From an uncultured Methylococcaceae bacterium (GTDB lineage: Bacteria; Pseudomonadota; Gammaproteobacteria; Methylococcales; Methylomonadaceae): a stretch of 32,000 nucleotides of DNA. The first letter of the stretch is position 1. Every line of letters begins with the position of its first letter. The DNA lies in the NCBI GenBank assembly GCA_903945605.1, contig CAJAWH010000093.1, forward strand, positions 7,186 through 39,185. Direction: 5' to 3'. The position numbers and the translations under genes are program-made. The notes under the pieces are model-generated. The model saw only the letters and a program-made list of their open reading frames with translations. It was not told where the DNA came from and did no database searches. Below, piece after piece: positions 1 to 22,592 of the stretch.

Positions 1-1124
1 AGCGTTAGGTCGGTATCGACAAACGCTTCTCCAGGCCCCATGAATTGCAATTTTTTCGCCATAGACGGTATATCAAATAATTTGATTGATCGTGTCATGC
101 CTTGGCTATTTTTATATAAATAGATAACGCCTTTTTTTGCAACCTCATCCTCTAAATAATTTAATATCATAGGGCTATGTGTTGTAACTAGTATCTGATG
201 ATGAGCCTGTACTAGATAGTCAATCAAATATTCAATAACCTCGGGATTAATGCCATTTTCTATCTCATCAAATAACAGAAAGGCAGGATCACTTTCGAGT
301 TGTGAAATAATTGCCATTAGCCTTAACATGCCATCATTGATATGACGTGCTGTTGATGTAATTTTATGTTCACCAAATTGCTCAACTATATCTAACTCTT
401 TCCATCCTGAACGTAGTGAGCGTGTTTCAATTGATTTTAATTGACCATAGATATGATTTAGCATCTCACACAATTTTTCCTGACCATTCTTACCTGACTC
501 ATGGATAAAAGCTGACAGTCTTTCTCCACCCAACCCTAATTTTCCATCGGCAGATTTAGCCCTGTTACGCAACAACTCTGGTGTCAACAAGTCGAGTGAA
601 ATTATATTTAGAATAATCGACTTAGAATCCTTTAAAGCTTTATTTATTTGATCATCTCTCAGGGATGAAATAATTGAGCCTTAATAGTCCCATACAACTT
701 TATACGATTTTGGTAGTTCATTGTACTTAAAAAGACCAGTTAAAAATAAATAACCTTCTTCCACCCTAAGAAAGCACGTTCCGCGAATTGTAATTTCTTC
801 TTGTGTGCACCTCAATTTACTACGATTTAAACTTCCGCTCCAAATTATTTCACCCAAAGGGCCAGACTCAATAACAACTTTAAACTCAATATTGCTTTTC
901 CTTGTTAATTTAGAGCTAATATCATCCTTGGCCCAATGACGTACTTTAAGCCATTCGTCTAAGTTACCTCTCATTAGTTGTGACAAAAAATCTAAGGCGT
1001 GAAGTACTGTAGACTTACCGGAGCCATTAAGCCCAACCAAACAATTGAAAGCGGTAAATTCCAACTTAAAATCAACTAACGATTTAAAGTTATCAATCCA
1101 AATTGATTTAATTTTAGTCATCAT
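1..1124 (-). pseudogene. ABC/AAA_21-like ATPase gene, 3' end off-window, interrupted by in-frame TAA (681-683) and TAG (537-539)
   Basis: One minus-strand frame is open from 1124 to the window edge except for TAA at 681-683 and TAG at 537-539. The N-part (track ORF 681..1124) has Walker A GLNGSGKST. My translation of 1..536 gives ...HINDGMLRLMAIISQLESDPAFLLFDEIENGINPEVIEYLIDYLVQAHHQILVTTHSPMIL..., i.e. an ABC-signature-like motif, Walker B and H-loop. The ATG overlaps the pglX stop (TAATG, 1122-1126). Sampled 60-nt lines are 28-38% GC versus 48-63% in the pglX 5' part. Confidence 0.7.
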
Positions 1125-4100
1125 TAATCTCCCGTTCCACCGGTCACCGCCTTAACCTCAGCGAGCAAATCACCAAATTTGCCGTAATTGACTTTAACAC
1201 CATCGTCCAAATCGATTTTGATCCACCTATCGGCATAATGTTTAAGTTTGTCGTCGAACTGGCGGAGTTCGGTTTGTTTTTTCTCCAGGGCTTGGATATC
1301 TTTTTTGATGCGCGTAGCCTCGGCGCTGCTGGCGTCTTGCAATTGTTGGTTTAACTGATCGGCATAAGCGCTGTATTTGCCCAGTAAGGGCGTGACGTAT
1401 TCGGTACGCATTCTGGCGAGGGTGCTGTCGTTGTAGCGGTGCAGGTAAACCAGACATTCGAAGGCTTTTTGCTTGCCGGTGCTGAACAGCCAGTAGATCG
1501 GGCGTTTTTTATAGGTTTGCAGGTGGTCTTTGTAAAACTGGTTGGACAGGTAGCGGCGCACGGTGTCCAAGCTGTTTTCGCCTTTTTTGGGTTTAAAGCT
1601 GCTCAAGGTCAGGCTTTCGGCGACGAATTCCAGGTTTTGCTGCAAAGTGTCTTCGCCCCACACTGTCACCAAGAACTCGCGGAAGCGGTTAGTGGCGTCA
1701 TCTTTGAACCATTCCTGATCGGTCAGCGGCAAAATGCCGTCTTCGTCAGCGGGAAAGCTTGGGTAACGGGACGGATCGAAATCGACATTGCCGGCATTTG
1801 CGTAGATCAAGCCTGGTTCATCCAGACTGTAGCGTCCCATCATACAGCCGATGGCATAGGAAATCAGACGTTGGATGTCTTTTTCTTGGTCGGCGCGGGT
1901 TAGGGTGATTTGGTCTTCGGGGACTTCGGGCGTGAGTTCATCTTGTAGGCCGTAGGCTTCAATGAATAGTCGGTTGTTTTCTTCTTCGAGCTGTTTCATC
2001 TGCGCGTATGCGGCACGGTTTTGGGTTTGCCATTTGGAGTAGGCGGTTGCCAGGTTTTTTTCTTTTGTGGCGATGAGTGGATTGGTTGCAAAATCCCATG
2101 AGGTTTCGTAGTTGTCCCAGTCGGTTTTTGCAATTTCAATTGCTTTCTTAACAAATTCATCAACTTCAGCATCAATAAATGGCAGAGCTATAACATTACC
2201 AACTTGAAAATTTAAAGTTGGGTTTAATGTATTCATTAGTGTTGGAGCGATTGCAGAACATAAAAAACCTGTAACCTTCAAAATTTTTTGCTGTTCAGGA
2301 AATAAAGATGAACCTGCTACGTCAAAAATAAAACCTGCTGAATAATAACGACCCCCAAAATATGATGAGCTTATAAACGACCAACTTACACTGGATTTAA
2401 AATATGAATCTCTGCCATCGTGACGAAATCCTGTATTGCTTCCGTTTTTTGCCCCTTCCAACATATCAAAACCATCATTTTGGTAATTGACTACAAAATC
2501 GTAATTGCCATGCCATTTTCTAAAAGCACCTCCTTTGTTATAAGGGAACCACTTTAGTTTCGATTGCTCTGCATCTTTTCTTGTAGAAAAGCCAATACCA
2601 AGATTTTTTGTATTAACTTCATGCCATAAGCGAACAAATTTATTGTTGTTTCCCGATGACATACCATGCTTCCCAACTGCAACATCACCCAACGCCGGAC
2701 TATTTGCAAAAATATCCCGAACTTTATCACTCACCCAATAGGCAATCGGACTACCTGAAATTTTTTTGAAATCGTCTTGAACGGTGGCATCAAAACGGTT
2801 TTGATTTGCTCGTAAAACGGCGGCTTTTTGCTCTTCGTTACCATCAATCAAGCGAAAAAAAGCAGGTTTGTAGCCGTTCATCTTTTTCTGATGAAACACA
2901 AATGCAGTTGTTTGCACCACTTCCCCTGAAATTTCCGCAAAGGCTCGTGCACCTAAATGCGCCATAGTGCATATCGTTCTGTTTGCTAACAACTTCTCCC
3001 GCAAAGTTTCATAAGACGACAAAAACATCCAACTTTGCATATTAACTTGAGCGTTAAATCCCGATAGATTGCAAAATTCAAAACCACGTTCTATAAACAT
3101 CGCAAACAAATCCGACTTGCTATCGGGAAACTGCTTTTTGGCAAACTCTTTCAATGCGGTATTCATGCCTTTACCGCCCATATACGGCGGATTAGCCACC
3201 ACAGCATCGTATTGCTGCGCCAATAACCAAGCCTGCTGCACATACGGCAACAAGGTCGTTGCCGCAAACTTTTGCATGTTGTCGCCTTGCTCAATCAGCT
3301 CCTGTAACTGGCTGGTCAAATTCCGCAAAAACTCCGCCTGCTCATGCGGTACTTGAATCAATGAACCCAAGGTTTTCGCTTGTTCGAATAAGACCAAGAT
3401 AGCCCGCAGTTGCTTAAACTCGATGTCGTCTAACGTATTTGCCAGGTTGCTTTGTATCTCTTCGTCGATAAGAGTATTAGTTCTACCGCGTTTGTCGCCT
3501 TCGTTTAACCCCAACTTTTGCCATAAATCCAGCAGATCGAGATTTTGCGTGGATTGAATCGCCAACACGTTGAGTTTGATGTCGCGGGTAAAAATGCGGC
3601 GGTCGTCTTCGCGGGCTTTCATCATCAAGGCAAAACCGGACAGTTGCGCGGCGCGGTCGTCGATGTCCAGGCCGTAGAGATTCTTTTCCAGAATCAGTTT
3701 GGGAATGTCGCGGACACGGTAGCCGCGCTCAATGTAAATGGCTTTGAGGATGTCGTAGGTTTCGACCAGGATATGGCCGGAACCGCAGGCGGGATCGAGC
3801 ACTTTGAGGGTTTCGGGATCGATGCTGGGCGGGGTGATCGCGGCTAGTGCTTCGACCACCGACGGTTCCTGTTCGGCGGGTTCGATGTAGTAGTCCATCT
3901 GCGCCTTCAGGCCGGAATCGGGATAGGTCATCAGCCATTGGCGACCGACGGAGTTTTGCACCAGGTATTTGACGATCCAGTTGGGGGTGAATAACTGGGT
4001 GGCGGCGGGGATGTCTTCGCTTTTGACCACGTTGCCTATGACTTGGTCTTTCTTTTCGGAGATATAAAACTGGTACAGCCAGCCGATAATTTCGACGGGT

Positions 4101-4723
4101 TGCCAGTCGTGTTCGGGGATGCTGTCCACCAGACCGCGCAGGATCGAATCGGTGCGGGTCAGATTGTCGGGCAGCAGCAGTTCGGTTTCATCATCCAGGG
4201 CTTCGAACAAAAACGGCATGGCTTGATGCAGTTGATGACATTGGCCCAACAGTAAGGTGCGATAGAGGTCTTCGTCTTTATTGCCCGCCAGTTTCAGTTC
4301 GACTATGCGGTTGCGATCCAGGCCCAGATCGGCGGCAACATCTTGGGCGTGGGCTAGGATTTCGAATGTTCCGGCTTTTTCAGGATGCGATAACACCCGC
4401 AGGTTATGCTCCAAATAGCCATGCAATTCCATGAAGCGAATGGCGGACAAGCGGTTGAACCAGGTGTAAGCCATCTGTTCTACTAATGCTTCAAAGCCCA
4501 TCTGCTCGGCCCGCTGAACCAGTCTCTCACGGGCACGCGCTAAACTGGCATCAAAACTCAAGCCTTCGATCTGCATCACCGAGCCGGAAATGACGGGTGT
4601 GTTGATGGTGAGCTGGCCTTTGCTGGTTGCATGAATACCAAACTGGTTAAGCCGTTGGCGGACAGCTGCTATGAAGTCGCGGCGGGCTTGCGGGGCGTAT
4701 TTTTTGAGGTTGTTGGTGTTCAT
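1124..4723 (-). CDS. pglX: BREX adenine-specific DNA methyltransferase PglX
   Basis: 1199-aa ORF of typical PglX size. SAM-binding motif LDPACGSGHIL and catalytic NPPYMGG (encoded about 3165-3195). Sits in the brxA-brxB-brxC-...-pglX gene order. ATG at 4721-4723. Confidence 0.9.
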   Translation of the reverse strand: MNTNNLKKYAPQARRDFIAAVRQRLNQFGIHATSKGQLTINTPVISGSVMQIEGLSFDASLARARERLVQRAEQMGFEALVEQMAYTWFNRLSAIRFMELHGYLEHNLRVLSHPEKAGTFEILAHAQDVAADLGLDRNRIVELKLAGNKDEDLYRTLLLGQCHQLHQAMPFLFEALDDETELLLPDNLTRTDSILRGLVDSIPEHDWQPVEIIGWLYQFYISEKKDQVIGNVVKSEDIPAATQLFTPNWIVKYLVQNSVGRQWLMTYPDSGLKAQMDYYIEPAEQEPSVVEALAAITPPSIDPETLKVLDPACGSGHILVETYDILKAIYIERGYRVRDIPKLILEKNLYGLDIDDRAAQLSGFALMMKAREDDRRIFTRDIKLNVLAIQSTQNLDLLDLWQKLGLNEGDKRGRTNTLIDEEIQSNLANTLDDIEFKQLRAILVLFEQAKTLGSLIQVPHEQAEFLRNLTSQLQELIEQGDNMQKFAATTLLPYVQQAWLLAQQYDAVVANPPYMGGKGMNTALKEFAKKQFPDSKSDLFAMFIERGFEFCNLSGFNAQVNMQSWMFLSSYETLREKLLANRTICTMAHLGARAFAEISGEVVQTTAFVFHQKKMNGYKPAFFRLIDGNEEQKAAVLRANQNRFDATVQDDFKKISGSPIAYWVSDKVRDIFANSPALGDVAVGKHGMSSGNNNKFVRLWHEVNTKNLGIGFSTRKDAEQSKLKWFPYNKGGAFRKWHGNYDFVVNYQNDGFDMLEGAKNGSNTGFRHDGRDSYFKSSVSWSFISSSYFGGRYYSAGFIFDVAGSSLFPEQQKILKVTGFLCSAIAPTLMNTLNPTLNFQVGNVIALPFIDAEVDEFVKKAIEIAKTDWDNYETSWDFATNPLIATKEKNLATAYSKWQTQNRAAYAQMKQLEEENNRLFIEAYGLQDELTPEVPEDQITLTRADQEKDIQRLISYAIGCMMGRYSLDEPGLIYANAGNVDFDPSRYPSFPADEDGILPLTDQEWFKDDATNRFREFLVTVWGEDTLQQNLEFVAESLTLSSFKPKKGENSLDTVRRYLSNQFYKDHLQTYKKRPIYWLFSTGKQKAFECLVYLHRYNDSTLARMRTEYVTPLLGKYSAYADQLNQQLQDASSAEATRIKKDIQALEKKQTELRQFDDKLKHYADRWIKIDLDDGVKVNYGKFGDLLAEVKAVTGGTGD

Positions 4724-4753
4724 TCTGTATTGCTGCCGTTTATTTTTATTTGG

Positions 4754-7700
4754 TTAAGCCGCAATGGTGCGGATACTGCTGCCATTTTTCGAGCTAATCA
4801 CGTCCAGCCGTAAGGCCATTTGTTCTTTCAATTCCGAGACATGCGAAATAATGCCGATCATGCGGCCACTGGCTTGCAGGTCGATTAGGGTTCTGATGGC
4901 CAAGTCCAGCGATTCAGGATCGAGACTGCCAAAGCCTTCATCGATAAACAAGGCGTCGAGTTTAATGCCGCCAGCGTAAGATTGGACGACATCCGACAAT
5001 CCCAGCGCCAAGGACAAGGCGGCCATGAAGGATTCGCCGCCGGATAGTGTAGCAACAGGGCGGTTTTTGCCTGTGTAGCCATCTTCCACTTCCAGATCGA
5101 GACCGGATGCCTTATTGCCTTTGGTTCGATCTTCCTTGCGTACCAACTGGTAGCGACCATTGCTCATGATATGCAGCCGTTGTGAGGCTTGGATCAATAC
5201 ATCGTCCAATAGCACGCTGAGCACAAAGCGTTGCAGACTGATGCGATTGCCGGTTTGGCCGTTGGCGACATCGCTTAAGGTGCCGACAATCCGGTATTGG
5301 GCTTCCAACTCTGCGTTCTTTTCATGGGCTTTGGCAAGCTTGTTTTTTACGCCTTGCAACTGATTATGGCGTTCTTGCAGTTTGCGCCAAGCTGCATCAT
5401 AGGCATTGAAGGCGTTCGTTTTGTCGGTAAGCTCCAAATCGAGTTTTTCCAAATCGGGTATGGCTTGATCCGCCAATTCGGTTTGCAGTTGTTCAACTGC
5501 GCCTTTCAGGGTAGCCCGTTCAGTTTGATAGGTTTCGATTTGTTTTTTTAGGTCTTGTCGTTGCTCATCACCGAGTAACGCAAGCAGGAAAGCATCAAGG
5601 TCTTCGAAAGGACTGTTGGTTAGCCCATCGTTCCAAGCGGCTTCAGTTTGACTGAATGCCAGTTGCAAGGCATCACGTTGCTGGCCTAGGGTTTGTAAAC
5701 TGGATTGTGCGCTGGCGAGAGCGTTGGATTTCTCGTTAAAGGCGGTCTGTGCGTTGCTGACGGCATCGGTCAGCGTTTTGATTTTGGTAGCCACATCGCT
5801 GATAGCTTTGCTTAATATCTGAGCGTCGCGATACGCTTCCGGTACCAGTTCTTCCAATTGTCCAACACGTGCACGGGCGGTTAGCACTTGGTCGTTATCG
5901 GATTTTGCTTGGGCTTCCAATGCGGCAATGTTTTCAGCCAGTTTAGCGAGTTGCTGGTTAAATTCGGCATTGCTTTGGGTCAGTTGTCTTTGTTGGGATT
6001 GTTGCTGTAACAAGCCTTGGACTTCGGATTGTTTGGTCTGGTAAGTTTGTTCGACTGCATTTAACGGCTGCTGGGCGATGTCTGCCAGTTGCTCGACCAA
6101 TTGGTTAATTTCTTTGATGACACCAGCCGTTTCCAGATGGGCAGTATCGTACTTGTCCTTGGCTATGTCCAAGGTTTTACGCGCCTGATCTTCCTGCGCT
6201 CTGGCATTTTCCACTTGCTGCTTGGTGACTAATTTGGCATCGTTGACGGCATGAGCCGGTGCTGGATGTTCCTTGCTGCCGCACACAGGACAAGGCTCAT
6301 CAATTTTGAGCTCTTGAGCGAGCAATGCGGCTTGGCCAGTGTGCCAAGCCAATTCTGTTTGACGAGCTTTTCGCTGAGCCGCTTCAAAGTCGCTTTGTTT
6401 GCTTCGGAAAGTCGCCAGCAATTGAGCTTCGAGCTGCTCTAATTCGATTTGTTTAGCGCGTTTTTGTTCGAGCAGTTTGCGCTGTTCGAACTGAACACGA
6501 CAGGCTTCCAATTCAATTTGTTTGGGAGCCAATGCTTCCAAGGCCAGAGCAATTTGATCGATTTGGACGGTGTTAGATTTCAGCGTAGTGGATAAGGAAT
6601 CGCTGGTTGTTAACTGCTTATCCAGATTGTCCTGACTGGTTTTGAGCTGTTGTTCGGCAGTAGCCAAGATAGACTTAGCTTGAGTTAACTCGATGACACG
6701 ATCCTGATATTGGTTAAGTTCAACCTGCTGTATGTTTAATTGATCCACTTCGACAAAAGCGGCCTGGGCTGCCTGCAATCGTTGTTCGGCTGCGTTTTTA
6801 TCTTCAGTCGCCTGTTCCAGTGTTTTTTCGCTGCTGGCAATTTGGGAAACCAGCTTTTGTAGTGCTGACGATTTTTCCTGATAAGAACGGTAAACCGGTT
6901 GAATCTTCTGGGCGTTGAGGGCGTGGTCGAGCTGGCGTTGTTTAGCCTGGATTTGTGGTTGCAGAGCGGTTTTTTGATTCAGTTCTTCTTGCTTGCCAGT
7001 CAATGTGTCGAAACGTTGTTTGACTGCCAAGGCAGTTTCTTTGGCCTTGGTTACTCGTAATTGGGCTTCGTGAGCTTGTTCTTTGTCTTGAGCAGCCGCT
7101 GTCAATTCCGGTTCAAGATGAGTCAGCTCATTGTCAATGTCCGCCTCAGAATGAACTTCAACACTTTGCAAAATACCTTTGATCTGGTGTTGATGTTGCT
7201 CAACCGCTTGTTTAATACCGGTAGCCTGGGCTTTGAGTTGATCTTCGATACGCTTGTAGATTTGGGTTTGGAATAATTGGCTGAAGATTTTTTCCCTTTC
7301 ACTCGAACCCGCCATCAACAGTTCGCGAAACTTACCCTGTGGCAAGACCATGACCTGACGGAATTGTTCGACATCCAGACCGATGCGTTTACGGATTTCA
7401 TCGCTGGCATCGCCGACGCTTTTGGCGACAATCAATGAGCCGTCCTCAGAACCATCGAGCAGCCACAATTGTGCTTCAGCTTGTTGGGTCGTAGTGCCTT
7501 CTCCGCGACTTTTCGGGCGCTCTTGAGTCGGAATTCGCCGTACACGGTAGCCAGTTTGGCCTAATTGAAAATCCAGTATAACTTCCGTCAAAAGGGCTGG
7601 AGCGGCATAATCACAACGCATTTGTGCCGGTTCGCGTTCCGCGCCCGTAGTTTGTCCGTAAAGGGCAAAACAGATGGCATCCAGAATTGAGCTTTTACCC

Positions 7701-7816
7701 GCACCCGTCGCTCCGTTAATCAGGAACAGCGGATTGGATCCCAGTCGCGTGAAATCGATGGTTTCACGGCTGGCGAACGGGCCAAATGCTTGCAGGGTCA
7801 GATTCAATGGCTTCAT
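4754..7816 (-). CDS. sbcC: SbcC/Rad50-family SMC-like ATPase (nuclease subunit C)
   Basis: 1020 aa. N-terminal Walker A INGATGAGKSS, very long Q/E/A/L-rich coiled coil, central zinc hook CPVCGSKEHP (about 6266-6300), C-terminal signature LSGGESF, Walker B LFIDEGFGSLD, H-loop IISHV. Start overlaps the sbcD stop by 4 nt (7813-7816). Confidence 0.85.
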   Translation of the reverse strand: MKPLNLTLQAFGPFASRETIDFTRLGSNPLFLINGATGAGKSSILDAICFALYGQTTGAEREPAQMRCDYAAPALLTEVILDFQLGQTGYRVRRIPTQERPKSRGEGTTTQQAEAQLWLLDGSEDGSLIVAKSVGDASDEIRKRIGLDVEQFRQVMVLPQGKFRELLMAGSSEREKIFSQLFQTQIYKRIEDQLKAQATGIKQAVEQHQHQIKGILQSVEVHSEADIDNELTHLEPELTAAAQDKEQAHEAQLRVTKAKETALAVKQRFDTLTGKQEELNQKTALQPQIQAKQRQLDHALNAQKIQPVYRSYQEKSSALQKLVSQIASSEKTLEQATEDKNAAEQRLQAAQAAFVEVDQLNIQQVELNQYQDRVIELTQAKSILATAEQQLKTSQDNLDKQLTTSDSLSTTLKSNTVQIDQIALALEALAPKQIELEACRVQFEQRKLLEQKRAKQIELEQLEAQLLATFRSKQSDFEAAQRKARQTELAWHTGQAALLAQELKIDEPCPVCGSKEHPAPAHAVNDAKLVTKQQVENARAQEDQARKTLDIAKDKYDTAHLETAGVIKEINQLVEQLADIAQQPLNAVEQTYQTKQSEVQGLLQQQSQQRQLTQSNAEFNQQLAKLAENIAALEAQAKSDNDQVLTARARVGQLEELVPEAYRDAQILSKAISDVATKIKTLTDAVSNAQTAFNEKSNALASAQSSLQTLGQQRDALQLAFSQTEAAWNDGLTNSPFEDLDAFLLALLGDEQRQDLKKQIETYQTERATLKGAVEQLQTELADQAIPDLEKLDLELTDKTNAFNAYDAAWRKLQERHNQLQGVKNKLAKAHEKNAELEAQYRIVGTLSDVANGQTGNRISLQRFVLSVLLDDVLIQASQRLHIMSNGRYQLVRKEDRTKGNKASGLDLEVEDGYTGKNRPVATLSGGESFMAALSLALGLSDVVQSYAGGIKLDALFIDEGFGSLDPESLDLAIRTLIDLQASGRMIGIISHVSELKEQMALRLDVISSKNGSSIRTIAA

Positions 7817-8958
7817 GCCCGCTCCCCCTCAAGCTTATGAATTTCAGCAATGGTGGTTTTAATGGCTTGGTCTTGTTCCGGTGTTAAGTCGTCGCCATGC
7901 ACTTGTTTGAAGAAGTCGCGGAACATATCCAATTCACCGCGTTTTAACTTATCCCGATTGATGGGCTGATCCGACATATCCAACATGCCTGGTTTTTCGA
8001 TGTGCAAAACATTGGGATAAACTTGGCGCAATTTACCCATTGGATCGAGTATCGCGTGCTTGTCAGTTAAGCGAACCAGGAGGTAATCTTCGTTTTGGCG
8101 ATCTGTCTTGCCTTGTTCGAGCAGTGTATCCAATTCGCCTTCCAAGATGCGCATGTCTCGCAACGGATGCAGTGGCAAATGGGTGGCGGATTGCATACCG
8201 TTGGCGGCCATTTCGACCAAGGTGATGCCCTTGCGTTGGTTTTGCTCGGAGAAGCTGTATTTCAAGATCGAGCCTGAATAGCGGATGTGTTGCTCGCCTT
8301 TATGCTGCGGACTGTGCAGATGACCTAGTGCGACATAGTCAAACGCGGTAAACGCTTCGTAACTGATTCGGTCAGCACCACCAATGGACAGCGGACGTTC
8401 GGAATCCGATTCGTCACAACCATTGATAAAGCAATGGCTGATTAAGATAGTGGGCGAGTCATCCGATTTTGAGCTGATGATTTGCTCGACCAGATAGCGG
8501 TGCGCTTCGTCGTGGGTAGAAACGTCGACGCCAAAATGATTGCGGACCGATTCGGGATCATTGTAAGGAATGCCGTAGAAATTGACTTCGAGCAAGTTTC
8601 CACGAATTTTCACCGGTTGGTTAATTTGACCTAACTCGCCGATAATATGCAGGCCAGTCTGTCGTAATTGCCTGGAAGCGAAACGTAGCCGTTCGGCACT
8701 GTCGTGGTTGCCTGGAATGAGCAACACGGGGATGCCAAGTTCGGCACAAATTTTATTGAGCACATCGTCCAACAACTCTACCGCCGCCGCTGGTGGAACC
8801 GAGCGATCATAAACATCGCCCGCAATCACCACGGCATCGACGGCCTCACGTTCTATATGTTCGATTAACTGCTCCAGAACGTGGCGCTGGTCTTCCAATA
8901 ATGAAACATTATGGAATTGCCGCCCAATATGCCAATCCGAGGTGTGGATGAATTTCAT
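7813..8958 (-). CDS. sbcD: SbcD/Mre11-family metallophosphoesterase nuclease subunit
   Basis: Track ORF 7813..9063 trimmed to MKFIHTSDWHIG (ATG 8956-8958), with AAGGA 7 nt upstream overlapping the brxC TAA. All phosphoesterase motifs are present: DWH, GDVYD, GNHD, SHCF, GHLH. SbcD-type C-terminal region. 381 aa. Confidence 0.85.
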   Translation of the reverse strand: MKFIHTSDWHIGRQFHNVSLLEDQRHVLEQLIEHIEREAVDAVVIAGDVYDRSVPPAAAVELLDDVLNKICAELGIPVLLIPGNHDSAERLRFASRQLRQTGLHIIGELGQINQPVKIRGNLLEVNFYGIPYNDPESVRNHFGVDVSTHDEAHRYLVEQIISSKSDDSPTILISHCFINGCDESDSERPLSIGGADRISYEAFTAFDYVALGHLHSPQHKGEQHIRYSGSILKYSFSEQNQRKGITLVEMAANGMQSATHLPLHPLRDMRILEGELDTLLEQGKTDRQNEDYLLVRLTDKHAILDPMGKLRQVYPNVLHIEKPGMLDMSDQPINRDKLKRGELDMFRDFFKQVHGDDLTPEQDQAIKTTIAEIHKLEGERA

Positions 8959-8968
8959 GTTGTTGTCC

Positions 8969-11900
8969 TTAGCGTATTCTGACGCGATCACCGGCGTTAA
9001 CTGCTGTTGCCAAACGCTCACGAAGGGCATGCAAGTAACGGTCAATATCATTTTCGGTTTCAATGAATCCTTTTGGCGACACGGTGTTTAGAACTTCGAC
9101 TTGGTTGATGGTGATAGTCCGTTTAGGGGCGGGGGCGGGTTCGGCCACTTTGTTATCGCCAGGCGTTGGCGTAACTGGTTTTGGCGCTTGCTTTTGCCTA
9201 AGCGATTCGATATGGCGATTGATTAATTCGTAAGCGTCGTCTTCGTAAGCAGCCGCTTCAGATTGGTCACTGACGATTTGCGGAATGGATTCGTTGTGGC
9301 TGATCTCCTGTCTGCATAATTGCAACAGGCGCAACGCTTTGTTTTGGATGTCGTCAGGCGCGCCAGCTTGTTTCAAAGCGGATTGCACGCGCTCGATTCT
9401 TTGATCAAGTTCTGTTTGGGCTAACTGGCGTTTTTCAAGTACCAACTGTTTATTGATCTTCTGGATTTGCTCAATCAGCGGATTAATATGACGCAGTTGG
9501 TCATAGGGCGAAGCCAAGTTGTAGATACGGTCTAATTCGTCCAAGGCATTTTTAGCCTCCGGGCCTTTTTCCAGAGCCGGACGGTTGGCTTTGAACAGAT
9601 CGTTCAGGGCATTGATGAGTGCTTGCCAAGTTTGGAATTGGCTTTTGTAGAAGTCGTCCAGGTCTTCAAAATCTTCGGCAAAATCTTCCAAGGCGTTGCT
9701 TTGTTCCAGGCAGCGTTCTATCAGCGCAAAGCTGTTGGACTGTTGGAGCAGATCAGCCAGCAGTGTCAAGCCCTGTTGGATGTGTTGTTTACCTGGAAAA
9801 TGGCCGGTTTGGGCTTTGCTGCTGAAGGATTTAAGGTCGTCATACCATACCCCGATTTCATGTTTCAGTAGCTCTGCCAGTTCTTTTTCGCCTGAGCCGG
9901 TAAAGGTTTTATTGAACAGATTTTTAGCCAACGCCGCTGCATTTTTCAGTTGACGCTCATCGTGCCGCCTAACCTTTTGAACACGGATTTCGCCGTGTTT
10001 ACGCACACTGGTAAACGGATCATAGGCTTTTTTCAGCGGCAGCTCGCTGACACCTAAGGTAAAGCTGATTTTGCCTGCCAGACCCAGTCGGGCAACCAAT
10101 AACAGGATTTCGTTTACCGGCCATCCATAAGGGCGACGGCTGTGGCGATTGATAATGTCACGTAAATAAACCGCTTCATTGCGCTCGATTTTCAAAGTGA
10201 TGAACAACTCGATCTCACGGGTCGCCTGTGGATTGCATTCCATGGCTTCCATGTCGATACCCAGTTGCACAACATCATCAGAGACCATGACCGAGTGAAG
10301 CTCGCGCAACACTTCACCAGGGGTCAGGTGCAGCATGTTGAGCTTGGCAAAGCTGTTTTCAATGACATAACGGTAGGCTTCTTCCAACATTGCCGAGGGC
10401 GAAGCCGTTTTAGGTATCAGCTTGGCACCGATGGCAAACAGCTGGGCTTCGGCAAACAGTTGTTCCAGATCGTGGCGCAGGCGTTTTTCGCGCCCGATGT
10501 TTTCAAGCTGTTTCTCCCGCAACAAATGTTCTTGTTCGGGCCTCTGGCCGGAATTCTGTTTTAAGAATCGGTCGGTTTTCAGGTAACGGGCTAAGTCGCC
10601 ATCCAATCCCTTGTGGCCGAATAACATGGGATGGTCCGGCAATTTGATCAGTACGCAGCCGTCACCTTCCAAGGTGTGGTTCAAACAATATTGGTCACTC
10701 AGAAACGCGTCGTAATGGCTATCTAAAGGCGACGTGATTTTTACAACGAGGTCTTCCAATGTCGATCCGTCTCTGGGGTGGCCATTGCAGAAGCGGCTGA
10801 TATTGAAATCTTGTTTATTGACCGGATAACGGTAAGTGGTTTGCCGCGACAACAGGCCATCGAAGATCAGATTTGAAAGCTTGTTGGTCAACTCCGATGA
10901 CCCAACATCGGTGTGTAGGATTTCGTTTTCGATTTCCTTTTCTTCATTCGTCAGGAATACAAATTCGTCGCCGTTACGGGCAATCAACATTTGCCGTTCC
11001 AGACGGTTCAAGCTTTCTTCAATCTGTATACGCAGGGCGATTTTGTCGGTGTCGATTTGATCAATACACAAGGTAACAATATTATCAAGTGTGCTTTTGA
11101 GGACATCTACGTAACGGATCAGAAATAGGGTTTTCAGCAATTTGCCGTCGAACTCAGTTAAGACATTGAGTTCACACGCTTGGTCGATAGTGCGTTTGAC
11201 AGCAGGTTCCAGAAAGCTTTCGATCGGACTGTAAAAACAATAAAACGGAATCAGTACGCCAATGCCTTGATCCTTGACTTGCTTGGCGGCGGATTGGAAG
11301 GCATCTAATAATGAGCGCTCGCCCATAGCCAAATGCTTGCCAGTAGCGCCTTTGGTGCGAATCGATTCAAAGACTTTTTGCACCAGCGGATAGTGGTAGG
11401 GGATAAACGGATAGTTGTCGATAAATGATGGCGCATCGTTATAACTGTTGAGCGAGGCCGTCGTCGTGGTGTCGAATGCCAGCTGATTGCGCAGGATATC
11501 ACCTTTTTCGGCAAATACATTCGCCAACACTTCAGTAGCGGCTTCGGTTTTTTCCAATAGCCGTTTTTGAATCACTTCCGAGGTATTGGAGCTTGACAGT
11601 TGTAGGCGGGTATAAAACCGGCCCTGAATTTTGGAAAAGTCATCGCCACTGTTTTTGTTCAGCTGGCCGATAGCCGCTTCAATGTCCGCTTGAGACGTCA
11701 CGATAACCCAAGCCCGACCACCGCAAAAAGTGCCTAAGTCTTCGGTAATGGTCTGCAACTTCAACATCATTTGCGTGTTTTGACCGATAAACTGGCCTAC
11801 TTCATCGACGAGGAACAATAGGTTTCGGTCATCATGACTTTCTAAGTAGTCATTGACCCATTTACAGAAGTTGCGGATATCGAGCGGGAAGTTGTTTTCT

Positions 11901-12604
11901 AGCTGCTCGACCCATTGCTTGGTGGATTCAATGGTTTGTTTGCTGGCTGCCGCAAGGCTCTCTGCAAGTTCATCCCGGTAAAAATCGTAGGCATCACGCT
12001 GGGCTTCCCAGCTTGAACCAGTGAGTTCTGCGAATTTGTCTTTGAACGCTTGGTATTGGGTACGTTTGTCCAATTCCCGCTCAAGATGCGCGATATGCGG
12101 GAAGTCGGCGCAATAGCCGACGCGCTCATTGAACACTTTGAGGAAAACTTTCAGGATCGCGTTGTCGCCATCGTCCGTATTAGCACGCGAATCGATGTTA
12201 AACAAAATGACATCGGTGGGTTTTGATACAGCGCTGTGAATATCGCCGAACAGCATCGCATCATTGATTTTGTCTTTGAAAAAATCAATGGCAAGGAGGT
12301 TCTCACCTGCATTTTGCACAACACGGTTTTCGAGCAGGTATGACAGAATCTTGATGAAATGCGATTTGCCGGAACCGAAGAATCCAGAAACCCAGACACC
12401 GATTTTTCCGGCTACCGCAGGATTACGGTTTTTGATTGCTGGGACATACGTTTCGAAAAAATGGCGGAAATGGCGATCCAATTCGTTGGTGATGACGTAT
12501 TCGTCCAACTCAACAAACACACACTCATCATCAAGCTGTTCGGCTTTGACTACGCCGTTAATGTCTCGGTTGAGCTGCTTTGAAAAAATCTGTTCGATGT
12601 TCAC
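8969..12604 (-). CDS. brxC: BREX ATPase BrxC/PglY
   Basis: 1211 aa. P-loop GFFGSGKSHF near the N-terminus (about 12360-12390). Size and position after brxB are typical of BrxC. GVWVSGFFGSGKSH context. GTG start at 12602-12604. Confidence 0.9.
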   Translation of the reverse strand: MNIEQIFSKQLNRDINGVVKAEQLDDECVFVELDEYVITNELDRHFRHFFETYVPAIKNRNPAVAGKIGVWVSGFFGSGKSHFIKILSYLLENRVVQNAGENLLAIDFFKDKINDAMLFGDIHSAVSKPTDVILFNIDSRANTDDGDNAILKVFLKVFNERVGYCADFPHIAHLERELDKRTQYQAFKDKFAELTGSSWEAQRDAYDFYRDELAESLAAASKQTIESTKQWVEQLENNFPLDIRNFCKWVNDYLESHDDRNLLFLVDEVGQFIGQNTQMMLKLQTITEDLGTFCGGRAWVIVTSQADIEAAIGQLNKNSGDDFSKIQGRFYTRLQLSSSNTSEVIQKRLLEKTEAATEVLANVFAEKGDILRNQLAFDTTTTASLNSYNDAPSFIDNYPFIPYHYPLVQKVFESIRTKGATGKHLAMGERSLLDAFQSAAKQVKDQGIGVLIPFYCFYSPIESFLEPAVKRTIDQACELNVLTEFDGKLLKTLFLIRYVDVLKSTLDNIVTLCIDQIDTDKIALRIQIEESLNRLERQMLIARNGDEFVFLTNEEKEIENEILHTDVGSSELTNKLSNLIFDGLLSRQTTYRYPVNKQDFNISRFCNGHPRDGSTLEDLVVKITSPLDSHYDAFLSDQYCLNHTLEGDGCVLIKLPDHPMLFGHKGLDGDLARYLKTDRFLKQNSGQRPEQEHLLREKQLENIGREKRLRHDLEQLFAEAQLFAIGAKLIPKTASPSAMLEEAYRYVIENSFAKLNMLHLTPGEVLRELHSVMVSDDVVQLGIDMEAMECNPQATREIELFITLKIERNEAVYLRDIINRHSRRPYGWPVNEILLLVARLGLAGKISFTLGVSELPLKKAYDPFTSVRKHGEIRVQKVRRHDERQLKNAAALAKNLFNKTFTGSGEKELAELLKHEIGVWYDDLKSFSSKAQTGHFPGKQHIQQGLTLLADLLQQSNSFALIERCLEQSNALEDFAEDFEDLDDFYKSQFQTWQALINALNDLFKANRPALEKGPEAKNALDELDRIYNLASPYDQLRHINPLIEQIQKINKQLVLEKRQLAQTELDQRIERVQSALKQAGAPDDIQNKALRLLQLCRQEISHNESIPQIVSDQSEAAAYEDDAYELINRHIESLRQKQAPKPVTPTPGDNKVAEPAPAPKRTITINQVEVLNTVSPKGFIETENDIDRYLHALRERLATAVNAGDRVRIR

Positions 12605-12622
12605 GAATGGCTGCCTGCTGAC

Positions 12623-13204
12623 TTATTTATTAAATGATTCGGGCACAAGTTTGAACGCACGATAATAATTTTTTGAATCGATCCGGCCAAACGGGTGTAG
12701 GTCTTGGCCACTATATTCGCCAGGGTAGAACAGCACCAACGGCGTTTTACCCATCACGTCTTGCAGCGCACTCAATAACTCATGACCTCGCACTAACGGC
12801 CAAGCATTGCCCAGACCTGTCAGTAAAACAAAATCCAAGGTTTCTGGCTGAATATCCGCCGCAATAAATTCAGCCACTTTTTTCTGGTTAAGTGGGCCGG
12901 CCAATGTCGATTTTATGGCGTTTACGCCGACCTGTTTTTCACGGGCAAAGGTACGTTCTAAAAGCCCCCTTGAATTGAGCATGTCGATCAGGGTTTGGAA
13001 CAGGTTTACATGCCTAAATTTGAAGCCACGTTTTTCCAACTTTTCGGTTAGATATTTAACATAGTCTCTGACGATGAGCTCATGATTTGCGGAATAGTCG
13101 AAAATCCAAAAGCCAATATCATTACCCAAGCCATCATTGTTTAAAAACTGCGGGTTATCGATACGCTCAAGGATGAGATCGAGTCGGTTTTGTAGCGATT
13201 TCAT
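12623..13204 (-). CDS. brxB: BREX protein BrxB (DUF1788-like)
   Basis: Track ORF 12623..13435 trimmed to MKSLQNRLDLILERI... The ATG at 13202-13204 overlaps the brxA TGA (ATGA); an alternative ATG lies at 13211-13213. ~193 aa, positioned between brxA and brxC. Family assignment by size, position and remembered similarity only. Confidence 0.75.
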   Translation of the reverse strand: MKSLQNRLDLILERIDNPQFLNNDGLGNDIGFWIFDYSANHELIVRDYVKYLTEKLEKRGFKFRHVNLFQTLIDMLNSRGLLERTFAREKQVGVNAIKSTLAGPLNQKKVAEFIAADIQPETLDFVLLTGLGNAWPLVRGHELLSALQDVMGKTPLVLFYPGEYSGQDLHPFGRIDSKNYYRAFKLVPESFNK

Positions 13205-13818
13205 AAGGTGCATTTCATGATCGGCTCGAGGTCTTCGCGATTTAATTGCTGCAACCATGATTTTGTCTCCGGTAGCAAGTAAACGGGCTGTAGGCGGCGG
13301 CTTTTGTTGTTGTCCAGATATCCCGCTTCGACCAAAGCCCGGATGACATTGGTGCCTGTTTTTTGTAGCGTAGCCTCTGACAGTTGGGACAAACCAGATA
13401 GTGTGCGAATGCGATCCAATAAAAAAATGCCCCACGCATCCGCAGCCAAATTGGGTTTATAAACACGTTTGGTTTCGGCAACGACGTGATTCATGAAATC
13501 GGCGACTACCGGTGTGTAAATCAGTAAAGCCAGCATCAAAAGCTGTGTATATAACGGATCGGCGGCATCGATAACAGCCTCCGAAAATGGCGTACCTAGG
13601 GGTAACAACCGCCGCTTTATCGTCCGTGCATATCGGATAGCGGTGTTCGGCGATTTTTTTCGTAGCACGTTATCTTGGGTAATGAGTTGTACCCAATCGA
13701 CTTCAGAGCAATCCAATAACAGGCTTTGGGCAACGGTTTTGCTTTCAGCAAGAAACAAACTCCCGCTGACTAAGTCGCGGATGTAGTGCTTGGCTTTATC
13801 AAGTTCTTGTTTACTCAA
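13201..13818 (-). CDS. brxA: BREX protein BrxA (DUF1819-like)
   Basis: 205 aa, first gene of the brxABC block. Start is TTG (13816-13818) overlapping the brxR TGA as TTGA. The next in-frame Met is about 95 codons in, so the TTG is the only sensible start. Confidence 0.7.
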   Translation of the reverse strand: MSKQELDKAKHYIRDLVSGSLFLAESKTVAQSLLLDCSEVDWVQLITQDNVLRKKSPNTAIRYARTIKRRLLPLGTPFSEAVIDAADPLYTQLLMLALLIYTPVVADFMNHVVAETKRVYKPNLAADAWGIFLLDRIRTLSGLSQLSEATLQKTGTNVIRALVEAGYLDNNKSRRLQPVYLLPETKSWLQQLNREDLEPIMKCTL

Positions 13819-14717
13819 AGCCCAGTTTCCTTATGGGGTAGGCAATAACCAGGTGCTAAGATAAGATTTTCTATAGACGTTAGTTCTTGGCGATTTGTGA
13901 GCCAGAGGTGGTATTCAGGGCCAACGAGCGCATGGTTTTCTGAGCAGTCCACATTCCACCGTCTTAACAAATAACCAGCAACAGCGGCACGTACCGAAAG
14001 CGTCAGTTTGCCATTTTCAATACCATATTCATGAGCTATGGTCTCAGGATAACCCAGTGAAGGATGGGGAACTAATTGAAGCTTTACGAATTGATTCCAT
14101 TGTTGATCGGCAGCCTTCGTTTCTGTATCTGAAACAGTCCGATTTTCAGCCAAACAAGGTTGTTCGATACGATTTATTACAAAATCGGAAAAGTGCTGTT
14201 TACGCCGGTCAAACGCCCTGACATGCCAACGCAAACCGTTATCGACCAGTGAGTGCGGGATGATTTCACGATGTGTTAAACCACTGGAAAGCGATCGATA
14301 AGCAATTGAGATTGCTTGCTTGCAGTAGATGGCGCGGGTAACGGACGCCAAAATATAACAGGCCGGAAAATGTAATTGAGTTGGCGCTTCGGCGGCATCG
14401 AAGGTACGGCTTGTAGATACAAAGTCATCACCATAGCCGTGGAGTAACGCTGCCAATGCTTGATGACTGGAATAGCTGAATAGTGGTGAAAAACTATCAC
14501 GCTGGATGTACGCTTTAGCTTTGGTGTCGTATTCCAGATTTTTTGGCGTTAATTCTTTGTAGAGTGTAATGTCCCTGGTTGCGGCGGCTTCTTTAATGCC
14601 AAAGCGTGCAACAAGGTCATTACGATTGACCGATCCAAGAAAAAACAAGCGGAAGTCTATATGCAACAGACGCTCCTTCTGGGTTTGACTTAAATTCTCA
14701 AGTAGCTGTTGTTGCAT
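13815..14717 (-). CDS. brxR: WYL-domain transcriptional regulator, BrxR-like
   Basis: 300 aa. N-terminus LSQTQKERLLHIDFRLFFLGSVNRNDLVARFGIKEAAATRDITLYKEL matches the winged-HTH start of BrxR/CapW-type regulators as I remember them. Lies immediately upstream of and coupled to brxA. Confidence 0.7.
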   Translation of the reverse strand: MQQQLLENLSQTQKERLLHIDFRLFFLGSVNRNDLVARFGIKEAAATRDITLYKELTPKNLEYDTKAKAYIQRDSFSPLFSYSSHQALAALLHGYGDDFVSTSRTFDAAEAPTQLHFPACYILASVTRAIYCKQAISIAYRSLSSGLTHREIIPHSLVDNGLRWHVRAFDRRKQHFSDFVINRIEQPCLAENRTVSDTETKAADQQWNQFVKLQLVPHPSLGYPETIAHEYGIENGKLTLSVRAAVAGYLLRRWNVDCSENHALVGPEYHLWLTNRQELTSIENLILAPGYCLPHKETGL

Positions 14718-14764
14718 GATGCGCTAAAAATAATCTAAGAAACCAACAAACAAAATGATGATCA

Positions 14765-16978: not shown

Positions 16979-18289
16979 ATGGCTACCAAAAAAATAACCC
17001 CGCTGGAATTTCAGCACTTCAAGAAAGCCACCGACAAAGAACGGGCGTTAAACGATGGTGGCGGCCTTTATGTGCGCGTTCGGTCGATAGCCGAGGGGGG
17101 CGGGGTAAGTTTTCGATACCGGTTTAAGCTTGAAGGTAAGCAACAATGGCTAACCTTTGAGGCTGAAGGCCTGAAGGAAGCGAGGGCAAAGGCTGAGGGG
17201 TACCAAAAGCAGGTCAACAAGGGTATCAACCCTGCACTAGAACTGAAACTTGAAAAGACCCGAAACAAACAAGCACAGCTTGCCGAACAAGCAGCACTAG
17301 CCAAGCTTAACGCACGGCTAACTGTCACCGACCTGTTCACACAGTGGTATGACATCCGCCTAACCAACCGCAAGGACAAGGAAGAGGTCAAACACACGTT
17401 TTATAGGCACGTGTTGCCTGTTATTGGTGGCCTATTTGTGGAAGAGGTCAGAAAGCTGCACATCACACAAGTCACAAACCCATTAGTGCAGCGCGGGGTT
17501 AATGTGATGGCTAACCGTGTGTTTGGCATGGTCAGACAGATGTTCCAGTTTGCAGTCGATCAGGACATCATCACCGCCAACCCCACGGCAGGCTTGAGCA
17601 AAGCCAAGATAGGCGGTAAGGAGGTGGAACGTGACAGGGTATTGTGTGAGGACGAGATAAAGGCGTTGGCAAGGCAAATGCCTGATGCAGGCCTTTTGAA
17701 GCCCACAGAGTGTGCTATTTGGCTTGCATTAAGCACATTGTGCCGTATCGGTGAGTTGAGCAGAGCCAAGTGGGCTGATGTGGATATTGAGGGCAGCAAG
17801 TGGCGGATACCTGAAGCCAACAGCAAAAACGGCAAAGCCCACACAATACACTTAAGCGGCTTTGCCAAAGCACAGCTCAGGGTGCTGAAGGATTGTGCGG
17901 CCAGCGACACTTGGTTATACCCAAACCGTGACGATAGCGGGCATGTGTGCGAGAAGTCTATCACCAAGCAGATACAAGGGCGGCAAACCGATAAGGTGCT
18001 AAGCGGCCGTTCACGATGCAATCAGGCATTGGTTTTGCAGGGCGGCAAGTGGACACCGCACGATCTGAGACGCACAGGCGCAACCCTGATGGGCAACCTT
18101 GGCGTTAGGCCTGATGTGATTGAGAAATGCCTGAACCACACAGAAGAGAACAAGGTTAAACGTATCTACCAGAGGCAAGAACTGAAAGCTGAACAAGCGG
18201 CGGCGTGGCAATTGTTGGGTGACAGACTTAACCTATTGGTTCGCACGGACAACGAAAATATTTTGGTTTTTCATAAAAAAATTGTTTGA
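16979..18289 (+). CDS. int: Tyrosine recombinase, P4-type integrase
   Basis: 436 aa. N-terminal arm-binding-like region (GGLYVRVRS...VSFRYRFKLEGKQQW). Catalytic residues in RIGELSRAKW, HDLRRTGAT and the Tyr in VKRIYQRQE. Adjacent to the att repeat. Confidence 0.9.
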   Translation: MATKKITPLEFQHFKKATDKERALNDGGGLYVRVRSIAEGGGVSFRYRFKLEGKQQWLTFEAEGLKEARAKAEGYQKQVNKGINPALELKLEKTRNKQAQLAEQAALAKLNARLTVTDLFTQWYDIRLTNRKDKEEVKHTFYRHVLPVIGGLFVEEVRKLHITQVTNPLVQRGVNVMANRVFGMVRQMFQFAVDQDIITANPTAGLSKAKIGGKEVERDRVLCEDEIKALARQMPDAGLLKPTECAIWLALSTLCRIGELSRAKWADVDIEGSKWRIPEANSKNGKAHTIHLSGFAKAQLRVLKDCAASDTWLYPNRDDSGHVCEKSITKQIQGRQTDKVLSGRSRCNQALVLQGGKWTPHDLRRTGATLMGNLGVRPDVIEKCLNHTEENKVKRIYQRQELKAEQAAAWQLLGDRLNLLVRTDNENILVFHKKIV

Positions 18290-18645: not shown

Positions 18646-18706
18646 CAACCAACCCAAGCCATAGGATTTTGGCTTTTTAAGCAATAAGTTGAAAGGATTC
18701 AACATC

Positions 18707-22460: not shown

Positions 22461-22560
22461 AACGCCATTTTTAAGATTTTCGCCAAAGAGCCAATTCATA
22501 ACCCCTTGAAAAAGTTGGTCGGGACGACAGGATTTGAACCTGCGACCACTTGTCCCCCAG
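22457..22560. repeat. Right direct repeat (att site) overlapping the 3' 45 nt of the intact tRNA-Pro
   Basis: Matches 16645-16748 at 100 of 104 positions. Homology stops exactly at 22560 and 16748 (cccccag|acaag vs cccccag|ttagg). Confidence 0.85.
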
Positions 22561-22592
22561 ACAAGTACGCTACCAAGCTGCGCTACGCCCCG
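22516..22592 (-). tRNA. tRNA-Pro (anticodon GGG)
   Basis: The reverse complement CGGGGCGTAGCGCAGCTTGGTAGCGTACTTGTCTGGGGGACAAGTGGTCGCAGGTTCAAATCCTGTCGTCCCGACCA folds as a cloverleaf. Acceptor stem 7 bp, anticodon stem CTTGT/ACAAG, loop CTGGGGG (GGG at positions 34-36, G37), T-loop TTCAAAT, encoded CCA. Confidence 0.9.

Follow-up and report, generated by a model that had tools for sequence, protein, structure and literature searches.

We analysed a 32,000-nt stretch of an uncultured Methylococcaceae bacterium (contig CAJAWH010000093.1, positions 7,186 to 39,185; hereafter the window), whose positions 1-1124, on the minus strand, carry a gene for an ATP-binding cassette (ABC) ATPase that follows pglX, the methyltransferase gene of a type 1 bacteriophage exclusion (BREX) operon. 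An exact-protein look-up with PglX led to the European Nucleotide Archive (ENA) contig k141_76057 (locus L018), which is 100% identical to the window over positions 1-14723, reaches 8.9 kb farther left and served as the leftward extension. The complete operon reads brxR-brxA-brxB-brxC-[sbcD-sbcC]-pglX-[ATPase, Toprim-like partner, Fic]-pglZ-brxL, and the gene at window positions 1-1124 opens an accessory cassette of three genes lodged inside it. In this copy the ATPase, its partner and the Fic gene all appear to have been disabled recently while BREX stayed intact, which we read as ordinary decay of accessory genes, with a probability of roughly 0.8.

Results

Genes and features of the cassette

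The features on which the argument turns are the following.

1..1124, minus strand: ABC ATPase pseudogene of the phage defence candidate (PDC) family PDC-M25A (Pfam, PADLOC, homologues)
1008..1034, minus strand: Walker A motif (P-loop) GLNGSGKST, residues 31-39, alignment columns invariant
282..1022, minus strand: divergent mosaic centre of the ATPase, residues 34-280, presumed sensor inserts, holding the stop codon (nucleotide identity, synonymous divergence pS, homologue identity)
681..683, minus strand: TAA, a premature stop (codon 148) where relatives read CAA or CAG, a single C-to-T change
309..341, minus strand: INDGMLRLMAI motif, in the same frame as the other three motifs
243..281, minus strand: Walker B motif and D-loop, FLLFDEIENGINP, residues 282-294
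171..191, minus strand: H-loop region LVTTHSP, residues 312-318
L018 14767-15516, off-window: partner gene, a 249-codon frame starting ten bases past the ATPase end (PDC-M25B, E 1.3e-96)
L018 15388-15390: in-frame TAG in the partner; relatives have CAG, CGG or CAT
L018 15520-16526, off-window, left of position 1: SoFic-like Fic gene with a TTG start at 15520 (PADLOC SoFic, E 3.4e-39)
L018 16289: 32-bp deletion in the Fic gene, flanked by GGC microhomology; the sequence is present in relatives
L018 16453: 1-nt insertion in the Fic gene, an extra A absent from relatives

An earlier note on this DNA had expected pglZ directly after pglX and had placed a possible partner effector gene, together with pglZ and brxL, outside the window. 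All of these genes are indeed present just left of it in L018, and pglZ lies 2.9 kb farther on, past two more embedded genes, being neither displaced nor missing.

The ATPase gene and its single stop codon

The ATPase open reading frame (ORF) runs as one minus-strand frame from 1124-1122 to the window edge and contains all four motifs quoted in the earlier note. Its 3' end lies 34 nt past the edge, where the last 11 codons and a TAG stop follow (L018 14724-14757). The gene comprises 385 codons if translation starts at the ATG at 1124-1122 and 384 if it starts at the conserved one at 1121-1119. The overlap with pglX that had been claimed is real: the pglX stop TAA occupies 1126-1124, TAATG spans 1126-1122, and the first ATG shares one base with the stop. 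The second ATG, 2-3 nt past the pglX stop, is the conserved start in four related loci and is also the one chosen in the ENA gene call; whichever ATG starts translation, the two genes are tightly packed. Directly after the ATPase start, a 6-nt insertion (window 1108-1118; L018 13606-13611) adds two codons, Thr-Lys, relative to three aligned relatives.

The TAA at 681-683 is in frame and is the sole stop in the 374 in-window codons. The second stop that had been proposed, a TAG at 537-539, does not exist as such, the in-frame codon 539-537 being TTA (Leu), with TAG at 538-536 in another frame. Likewise, the peptide LGLGGERLSAFIHESGKNGQ (480-539), formerly assigned to a +1 frame reached through two compensating indels, belongs to the gene's own frame, and hence no indels are required. 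The proposed knock-out thus stands with one nonsense codon, falls in its version with two stops or indels, and proves too narrow, since the partner and Fic genes are broken too.

By Pfam, the protein matches AAA_21 (E 1.6e-21), AAA_15 (E 7.8e-16) and SMC_N, and in PADLOC-DB its best family is PDC-M25A (E 1.7e-154, 512.5 bits), with residues 4-374 aligned on model positions 1-363 of 380. Among 5.8 billion proteins, 2943 homologues were found at E <= 1e-10; the best 120 of these are single chains of 371-403 aa, and the closest among the matches listed is 71% identical. The AlphaFold2 model of an intact orthologue (P0003; confidence score pLDDT 83) matches PtuA, SMC-head, Rad50 and OLD folds at E 4e-12 to 4e-11 with a probability of 1.00. 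The gene encodes the Walker A, Walker B/D-loop and H-loop elements, and the P0003 model has the ABC-head fold. On the Pfam, PADLOC and fold matches the protein is an ABC ATPase of the defence-associated clade (SMC/Rad50/OLD/PtuA), coupled to pglX, as had been proposed. PDC-M25 itself is a catalogued candidate anti-phage pair that often lies inside BREX loci; a literature search for 'PDC-M25' found no paper, and E. coli genomes yielded a pglX match at about 70% but nothing related to the ATPase.

The partner gene

The reconstructed partner aligns with PDC-M25B over residues 1-242 (model positions 1-244 of 248), and the partners in L002, L009 and L012 match the same model at E 1e-88 to 3e-82. 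Intact homologues of 249 aa reach 86% identity, some of them named Methylomicrobium or Methylomonas. The AlphaFold model of the partner (pLDDT 86.7, predicted template modelling score 0.88) consists of alternating strands and helices, with Glu8 after strand 1 (residues 2-7) and D120-x-D122 after strand 3 (residues 113-118), both invariant in 32 sequences. A Glu after strand 1 and a DxD after strand 3 form the Toprim signature, and DUF4276 has been placed in the Toprim superfamily (PMC12065111). DUF4276 gives weak matches in 10 of the 32 family members (best E 0.0044), and HEC-01B matches the DxD region of the L018 partner weakly (E 0.0013).

A resident cassette

The same BREX-1 operon occurs in L019, L020/L021 and L022, with an intact 382-aa ATPase, a 248- or 249-aa partner and a 345-aa Fic protein between pglX and pglZ, and a Halomonas chromosome (L003) carries the order pglX-A-B-Fic-pglZ-brxL with a Fic protein of 454 aa. 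Since the same trio sits at the same pglX/pglZ junction in four relatives and in Halomonas, the cassette is resident in this BREX lineage.

In 14 full-length genome loci examined for PDC-M25 context, the pair lies inside a BREX-type locus in three (L003, L012 and L014). Elsewhere, in one locus each, it follows a type I restriction-modification operon (L009), stands beside Avs2 on a TniQ element (L008) or lies near a Shango gene (L004). The linkage of PDC-M25 to BREX is therefore frequent, not obligatory. In the Aliivibrio locus (L009, 11870-13486) the pair stands after hsdR-hsdM-hsdS, with another AAA_21 ATPase, larger at 538 aa, behind it, which suggests that ABC-ATPase systems are stacked there downstream of a type I restriction-modification operon.

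Four lesions in three genes

We defined the lesions against the intact relatives L019, L020 and L022. Comparison with these orthologues shows that the window copy of the ATPase carries TAA in place of CAA or CAG, at a near-invariant position where 18 of 19 homologues have Gln. As Walker B lies downstream of this TAA, it is not translated together with the P-loop. In the partner, the TAG follows codon 207 of 249 and removes the conserved last 42 residues; beyond it the conserved C-terminus (…IDMPSFNAFK…) resumes in the same frame. The Fic protein is truncated after about 256 of 345 residues, the present ORF ending at 262 aa with the Fic-like_C domain lost. In this copy the pair is hence unable to work, with a 147-aa ATPase product that has the P-loop only and a partner without its C-terminal 42 residues. 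A reassigned stop codon was considered as well and rejected: TAA, TAG and TGA all end conserved genes of the operon.

All four lesions fall inside the 2.9-kb cassette, and the 18.3 kb of BREX and SbcCD coding sequence is free of them (random-placement probability 3.6e-4), the nine BREX and SbcCD genes all being intact. Apart from the lesions, the genes have changed little. Highly conserved sites are kept at 67 of 67 positions in the partner and 163 of 171 in the ATPase, where the differences are conservative, and downstream of the TAA, 88 of the 90 invariant positions of the ATPase are unchanged. This near-complete retention of conserved residues shows the lesions to be recent. The pairwise ratio of nonsynonymous to synonymous substitution rates (dN/dS, omega) of the partner is 0.15-0.22 against the relatives and 0.10-0.11 among them, a gap too small to interpret, and pairwise dN/dS gives no clear sign of relaxed selection.

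A mosaic centre in the ATPase

The AT-rich contrast with pglX that had been noted before is borne out: the guanine-plus-cytosine (GC) content of the ATPase gene is 35.4% (30.6% at third codon positions), against 44-52% in neighbouring genes and 54-55% in the 5' bins of pglX. The ATPase is also AT-rich in the four relatives (38.7-39.6% GC). The pglX end, the first ~100 nt and the last ~300 nt of the gene match the relatives at 82-95% nucleotide identity, which falls to 55-67% over most of window positions 282-1022, with about 72-76% near the 3' boundary; the relatives share 83-93% with each other throughout. Over residues 34-280, synonymous sites are saturated (pS 0.76-0.87; flanks 0.32-0.58), and amino acid identity to any of the top 120 homologues is at most 65%, while the C-terminal third reaches 92%. 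The nonsynonymous divergence (pN) of the same residues is 0.21-0.31, far below pS, so the imported segment has evolved as part of a working gene.

We conclude from these sequence comparisons that only the centre of the ATPase (residues 34-280) is foreign, probably a distant, unsampled allele acquired by recombination before the knock-out. Of the foreign origin that had been proposed for the gene, this holds for the central ~740 nt; it fails for the cassette, which four related BREX loci carry in conserved form at the pglX/pglZ junction. The mosaic segment takes up the whole interval from Walker A to Walker B, and the confinement of allele swapping to this interval makes it the probable determinant of specificity. 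For PARIS, trigger recognition has been predicted to reside in an insertion of the ATPase (PMC11464382).

Discussion

A model for the intact pair

By analogy with better-described systems, the intact ABC ATPase would act as a sensor that restrains the small Toprim/DUF4276-like nuclease. The variable inserts in its centre would detect a phage signal, plausibly a protein that counters BREX or restriction, and an ATP-dependent rearrangement would then release the nuclease, which would cleave tRNA or DNA and so abort the infection; the pair might in this way serve as a back-up layer for BREX. The mechanistic analogue is the AriA/AriB pair of PARIS (PMC11464382). Dyads of an OLD-type ABC ATPase and a Toprim protein embedded in BREX have been described from at least 1242 BREX-bearing taxa (PMC12839542), and a rationale for the embedding of accessory defence pairs has been given (bioRxiv 10.1101/2024.01.29.577857).

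Weighing the readings

Several points weigh against the reading of a recently disabled defence cassette. L018 is the same sequence as the window and hence not independent, and the Logan contig that supports the stop codon (see below) may share the sample, which makes the read-level support indirect. The truncated 207-aa partner keeps the predicted catalytic residues, and the truncated Fic protein of 262 aa, which retains the HPFxxGNGR core (HPFSDGNGR), might remain active. Regarding the nature of the partner, Foldseek of its model against the PDB returned nothing significant (best E 0.033; OLD nuclease 0.18), and a profile search of PDB sequences with the partner returned nothing relevant. With no usable match from either search, the Toprim call draws on the motifs and on weak profile matches, and a Toprim/DUF4276-like nuclease is the best reading of the partner, a weak and unproven assignment. 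The trigger, the nuclease substrate and the interaction of the two proteins are proposed by analogy, and the source preprint itself calls its 145 phage defence candidates untested (bioRxiv 10.1101/2024.01.29.577857).

We consider it unlikely that the trio is a dedicated type 1 BREX guard module. On that account the sensor insert would be exchanged as a cassette, much as the target-recognition region of pglX apparently is, and the joint knock-out would reflect selection against autoimmune misfire and not neutral decay. Quite improbable, too, is that inactivation was selected after a swapped, mismatched ATPase sensor had misfired, favouring knock-outs of ATPase and partner. The stop does sit inside the imported segment, and each gene of the pair has, independently, its own nonsense codon with no other decay. 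However, the imported segment shows a pN and pS of about 0.3 and 0.77, as expected of a gene that evolved under constraint while working, and the breakage of the unrelated Fic gene fits a general relaxation of selection on the cassette; the order of events cannot be established from the present data.

A similarly low probability attaches to the view that errors of sequencing or assembly produced the stops and indels and that the ATPase and its neighbours are intact in the living cell. L018 is apparently a metagenome contig, as its MEGAHIT-style name suggests, consensus errors do occur in such assemblies, and the genes look perfectly conserved apart from the lesions. Yet errors would have to account for four separate lesions of three kinds (two C-to-T changes at non-homopolymer sites, a GGC-flanked 32-bp deletion and a 1-nt insertion), confined to 2.9 kb beside 18.3 kb of clean flanking genes. 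Moreover, an independent Logan assembly of SRR8496331 (L001) is identical to window positions 27-1415, TAA included, and the truncated 207-aa partner protein is also on record from Logan. We thus take the stops to be real, with residual doubt, the types of lesion arguing against error.

It is very unlikely that the ATPase gene still works, either as two pieces (a 147-aa P-loop fragment and a restart at the TTG at L018 14134) or through read-through or suppression of UAA: conservation downstream of the stop is perfect and an in-frame TTG follows 30 codons after it, called as a 207-aa gene, but no Shine-Dalgarno sequence is evident ahead of this TTG, a restart would cost the protein 30 conserved residues (the invariant G149 and S150 among them), the best 120 of the 2943 homologues are single chains, UAA and UAG are the genuine terminators of pglX and of the ATPase in the same operon, and the breakage of partner and Fic fits loss rather than regulation.

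Altogether, we favour ordinary decay of the cassette, in which a putative back-up layer was lost gene by gene while the BREX core was kept, consistent with abortive modules being costly or dispensable. At the pglX/pglZ junction of two distant BREX lineages, moreover, PDC-M25 is accompanied by a SoFic-like gene. The direct value of the finding is small, since this is an inactivated copy of a catalogued pair in a genomic context already known for such pairs.

The surrounding BREX operon

The type 1 BREX set brxA, brxB, brxC, pglX, pglZ and brxL is complete and intact by PADLOC and Pfam, with gene lengths that match, or sit within the range of, those in relatives. The window carries the following part of the operon.

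1124..4723, minus strand: pglX, BREX-1 methyltransferase, 1199 aa, intact (PADLOC PglX, E 0; Pfam Eco57I, N6_Mtase, MmeI_Mtase)
4754..7816, minus strand: SbcC-like ATPase, 1020 aa, intact, between brxC and pglX (Pfam AAA_23, SbcC_Walker_B; NCBIfam sbcc below cut-offs)
7813..8958, minus strand: SbcD-like nuclease, 381 aa, intact (Pfam Metallophos, SbcD_C; gene call in L018; NCBIfam sbcd subfamily, 203 bits, cut-off 77.65)
8969..12604, minus strand: brxC, 1211 aa, intact (PADLOC BrxC, E 0)
12623..13258, minus strand: brxB, gene call of 211 aa (PADLOC BrxB, 2.9e-68)
13201..13818, minus strand: brxA (PADLOC BrxA, 2.1e-67)
13815..14717, minus strand: brxR, WYL-domain regulator (PADLOC WYL, 1e-16; Pfam WHD_BrxR, WYL and BrxR_CTD on the identical L018 gene)

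In L018, the ATG of pglZ (870 aa, intact) overlaps the ancestral Fic stop as TAATG, and brxL (697 aa, intact) then follows. A promoter and terminator scan of the cassette did no better than shuffled sequences (6 promoter-like sites, 6.5 expected).

Within pglX, a mid-gene patch at window 2300-3500 has 38-45% GC against 50-55% elsewhere, and the gene as a whole is only 69-76% identical between loci whose brxL genes are 94-98% identical. Patch and divergence suggest swapping of the target-recognition region, in parallel to the mosaic centre of the ATPase.

The SbcD/SbcC-like pair is divergent. Its SbcC-like member falls under every listed NCBIfam cut-off, and the SbcD-like one clears the broad sbcd subfamily model only. 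The same pair fills the slot between brxC and pglX in L020 and L021, a 50-aa ORF alone is found there in L019 and a DUF4238 gene in L022. No PADLOC model describes the pair (best match LmuB, 1.3e-19), and a literature search on SbcCD in BREX returned nothing relevant and no BREX paper that mentions SbcCD; the pair may be a candidate system embedded in BREX and not yet listed.

The BREX locus is part of an integrative island beside tRNA-Pro(GGG) (window 22516-22592), downstream of thrS-infC-rplT-pheS-pheT. Genes for an integrase of P4 type (window 16979-18289) and for a primase of the P4 family (18689-20968) are also on the island. Beyond brxL, a 111-aa zinc-finger/helix-turn-helix ORF (L018 21734-22069) with weak HTH_23 and Terminase_5 matches looks like a fragment of an IS1-type InsA and may mark the far edge of the island.

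Comparison with known systems

The pair most closely resembles PDC-M25. Both genes fit its models nearly end to end, A precedes B with a gap of at most 16 nt, and they are embedded in BREX, the type of context from which the candidate models were built (bioRxiv 10.1101/2024.01.29.577857). Models A and B match adjacent genes here, and the two genes are not both intact: unlike in PDC-M25 as catalogued, each has a premature stop. The ATPase centre is an unsampled variant, and in this BREX lineage and in Halomonas the pair is accompanied by Fic.

This third gene fits the PADLOC SoFic model, at E 2.6e-41 for the intact Fic protein of a relative versus 3.4e-39 for the truncated copy, and the relatives have both Fic and Fic-like_C domains. 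It differs from SoFic in its NCBIfam equivalog score, far under the cut-off (59.9 bits against 550), and in being truncated in this copy. The 90%-identity cluster of the L018 Fic protein consists mostly of 345-aa members and includes Methylomonas, Methylomicrobium and Methylobacter. The ribosomal protein L20 groups at 90% identity with its counterparts in Methylosoma and Methylovulum, and the two clusters point to a Methylococcales methanotroph as the probable host.

The earlier note had also pointed to validated systems, with the ATPase as the sensor of PARIS (AriA), Septu (PtuA) or Gabija (GajA) or as an OLD nuclease. The profile searches agree with its AAA_21/AAA_15 type and place the ATPase in PDC-M25A rather than in these families, the next PADLOC families being PDC-M07A (112 bits), HEC-01A (94), AbiLi (80), AriA (79), mad3 (76), GajA (64) and Old (54). 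The ABC ATPase fold is common to all, with PtuA and OLD among the top structural matches (E ~1e-11), and there are weak sequence matches to AriA (E 1.8e-22), GajA (2.2e-18) and Old (2.4e-15); still, SMC and Rad50 heads fit the fold equally well as PtuA, no Toprim domain is fused to the ATPase, and by Pfam and PADLOC the partner has no DUF4435 (AriB), HNH (PtuB) or helicase (GajB) signature. Membership in one of these systems is hence highly improbable.

With PARIS the pair shares the two-gene layout, an ABC ATPase sensor followed by a small protein with Toprim-type acidic motifs, and PARIS-like modules embedded in BREX loci have been described (PMC12839542). It differs in that the AriA models score 78.7 and 71.8 bits, against 512.5 for PDC-M25A, and in size, AriA being about 55 kDa (PMC11464382) and the ATPase about 385 aa. 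No PARIS entry was found among the top 50 structural matches of the ATPase model, nor did Pfam or PADLOC detect DUF4435/AriB in the partner at E up to 1. The likeness to Septu is at the level of the PtuA fold alone (TM 0.45-0.49, 11-15% identity). As for OLD and GajA, the ATPase has no domain after the ABC head, and both models match partially (E 2e-15 and 2e-18, respectively).

MADS (Mad3/Mad4) and Menshen (NsnB/NsnC), which combine an ABC ATPase with a DUF4276 Toprim effector, offer further likenesses. MAD3 is the best NCBIfam match of the intact orthologue (E 9.7e-22), PADLOC mad3 (E 8.6e-22) and NsnB (E 1.2e-17) match the ATPase, and DUF4276, the sole recurrent Pfam signal of the partner, is the Mad4 family. 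However, the scores lie far below the cut-offs (77.7 bits against 420 for MAD3), and no other MADS or Menshen genes are present at the locus. Finally, HEC-01, an Hma-embedded ABC ATPase with a Toprim-like protein that gave no defence in published assays (bioRxiv 10.1101/2024.01.29.577857), resembles the pair in architecture and embedded lifestyle, its HEC-01A models matching the ATPase at E down to 1.9e-27, but it is a separate family whose scores are about five times below those of PDC-M25.

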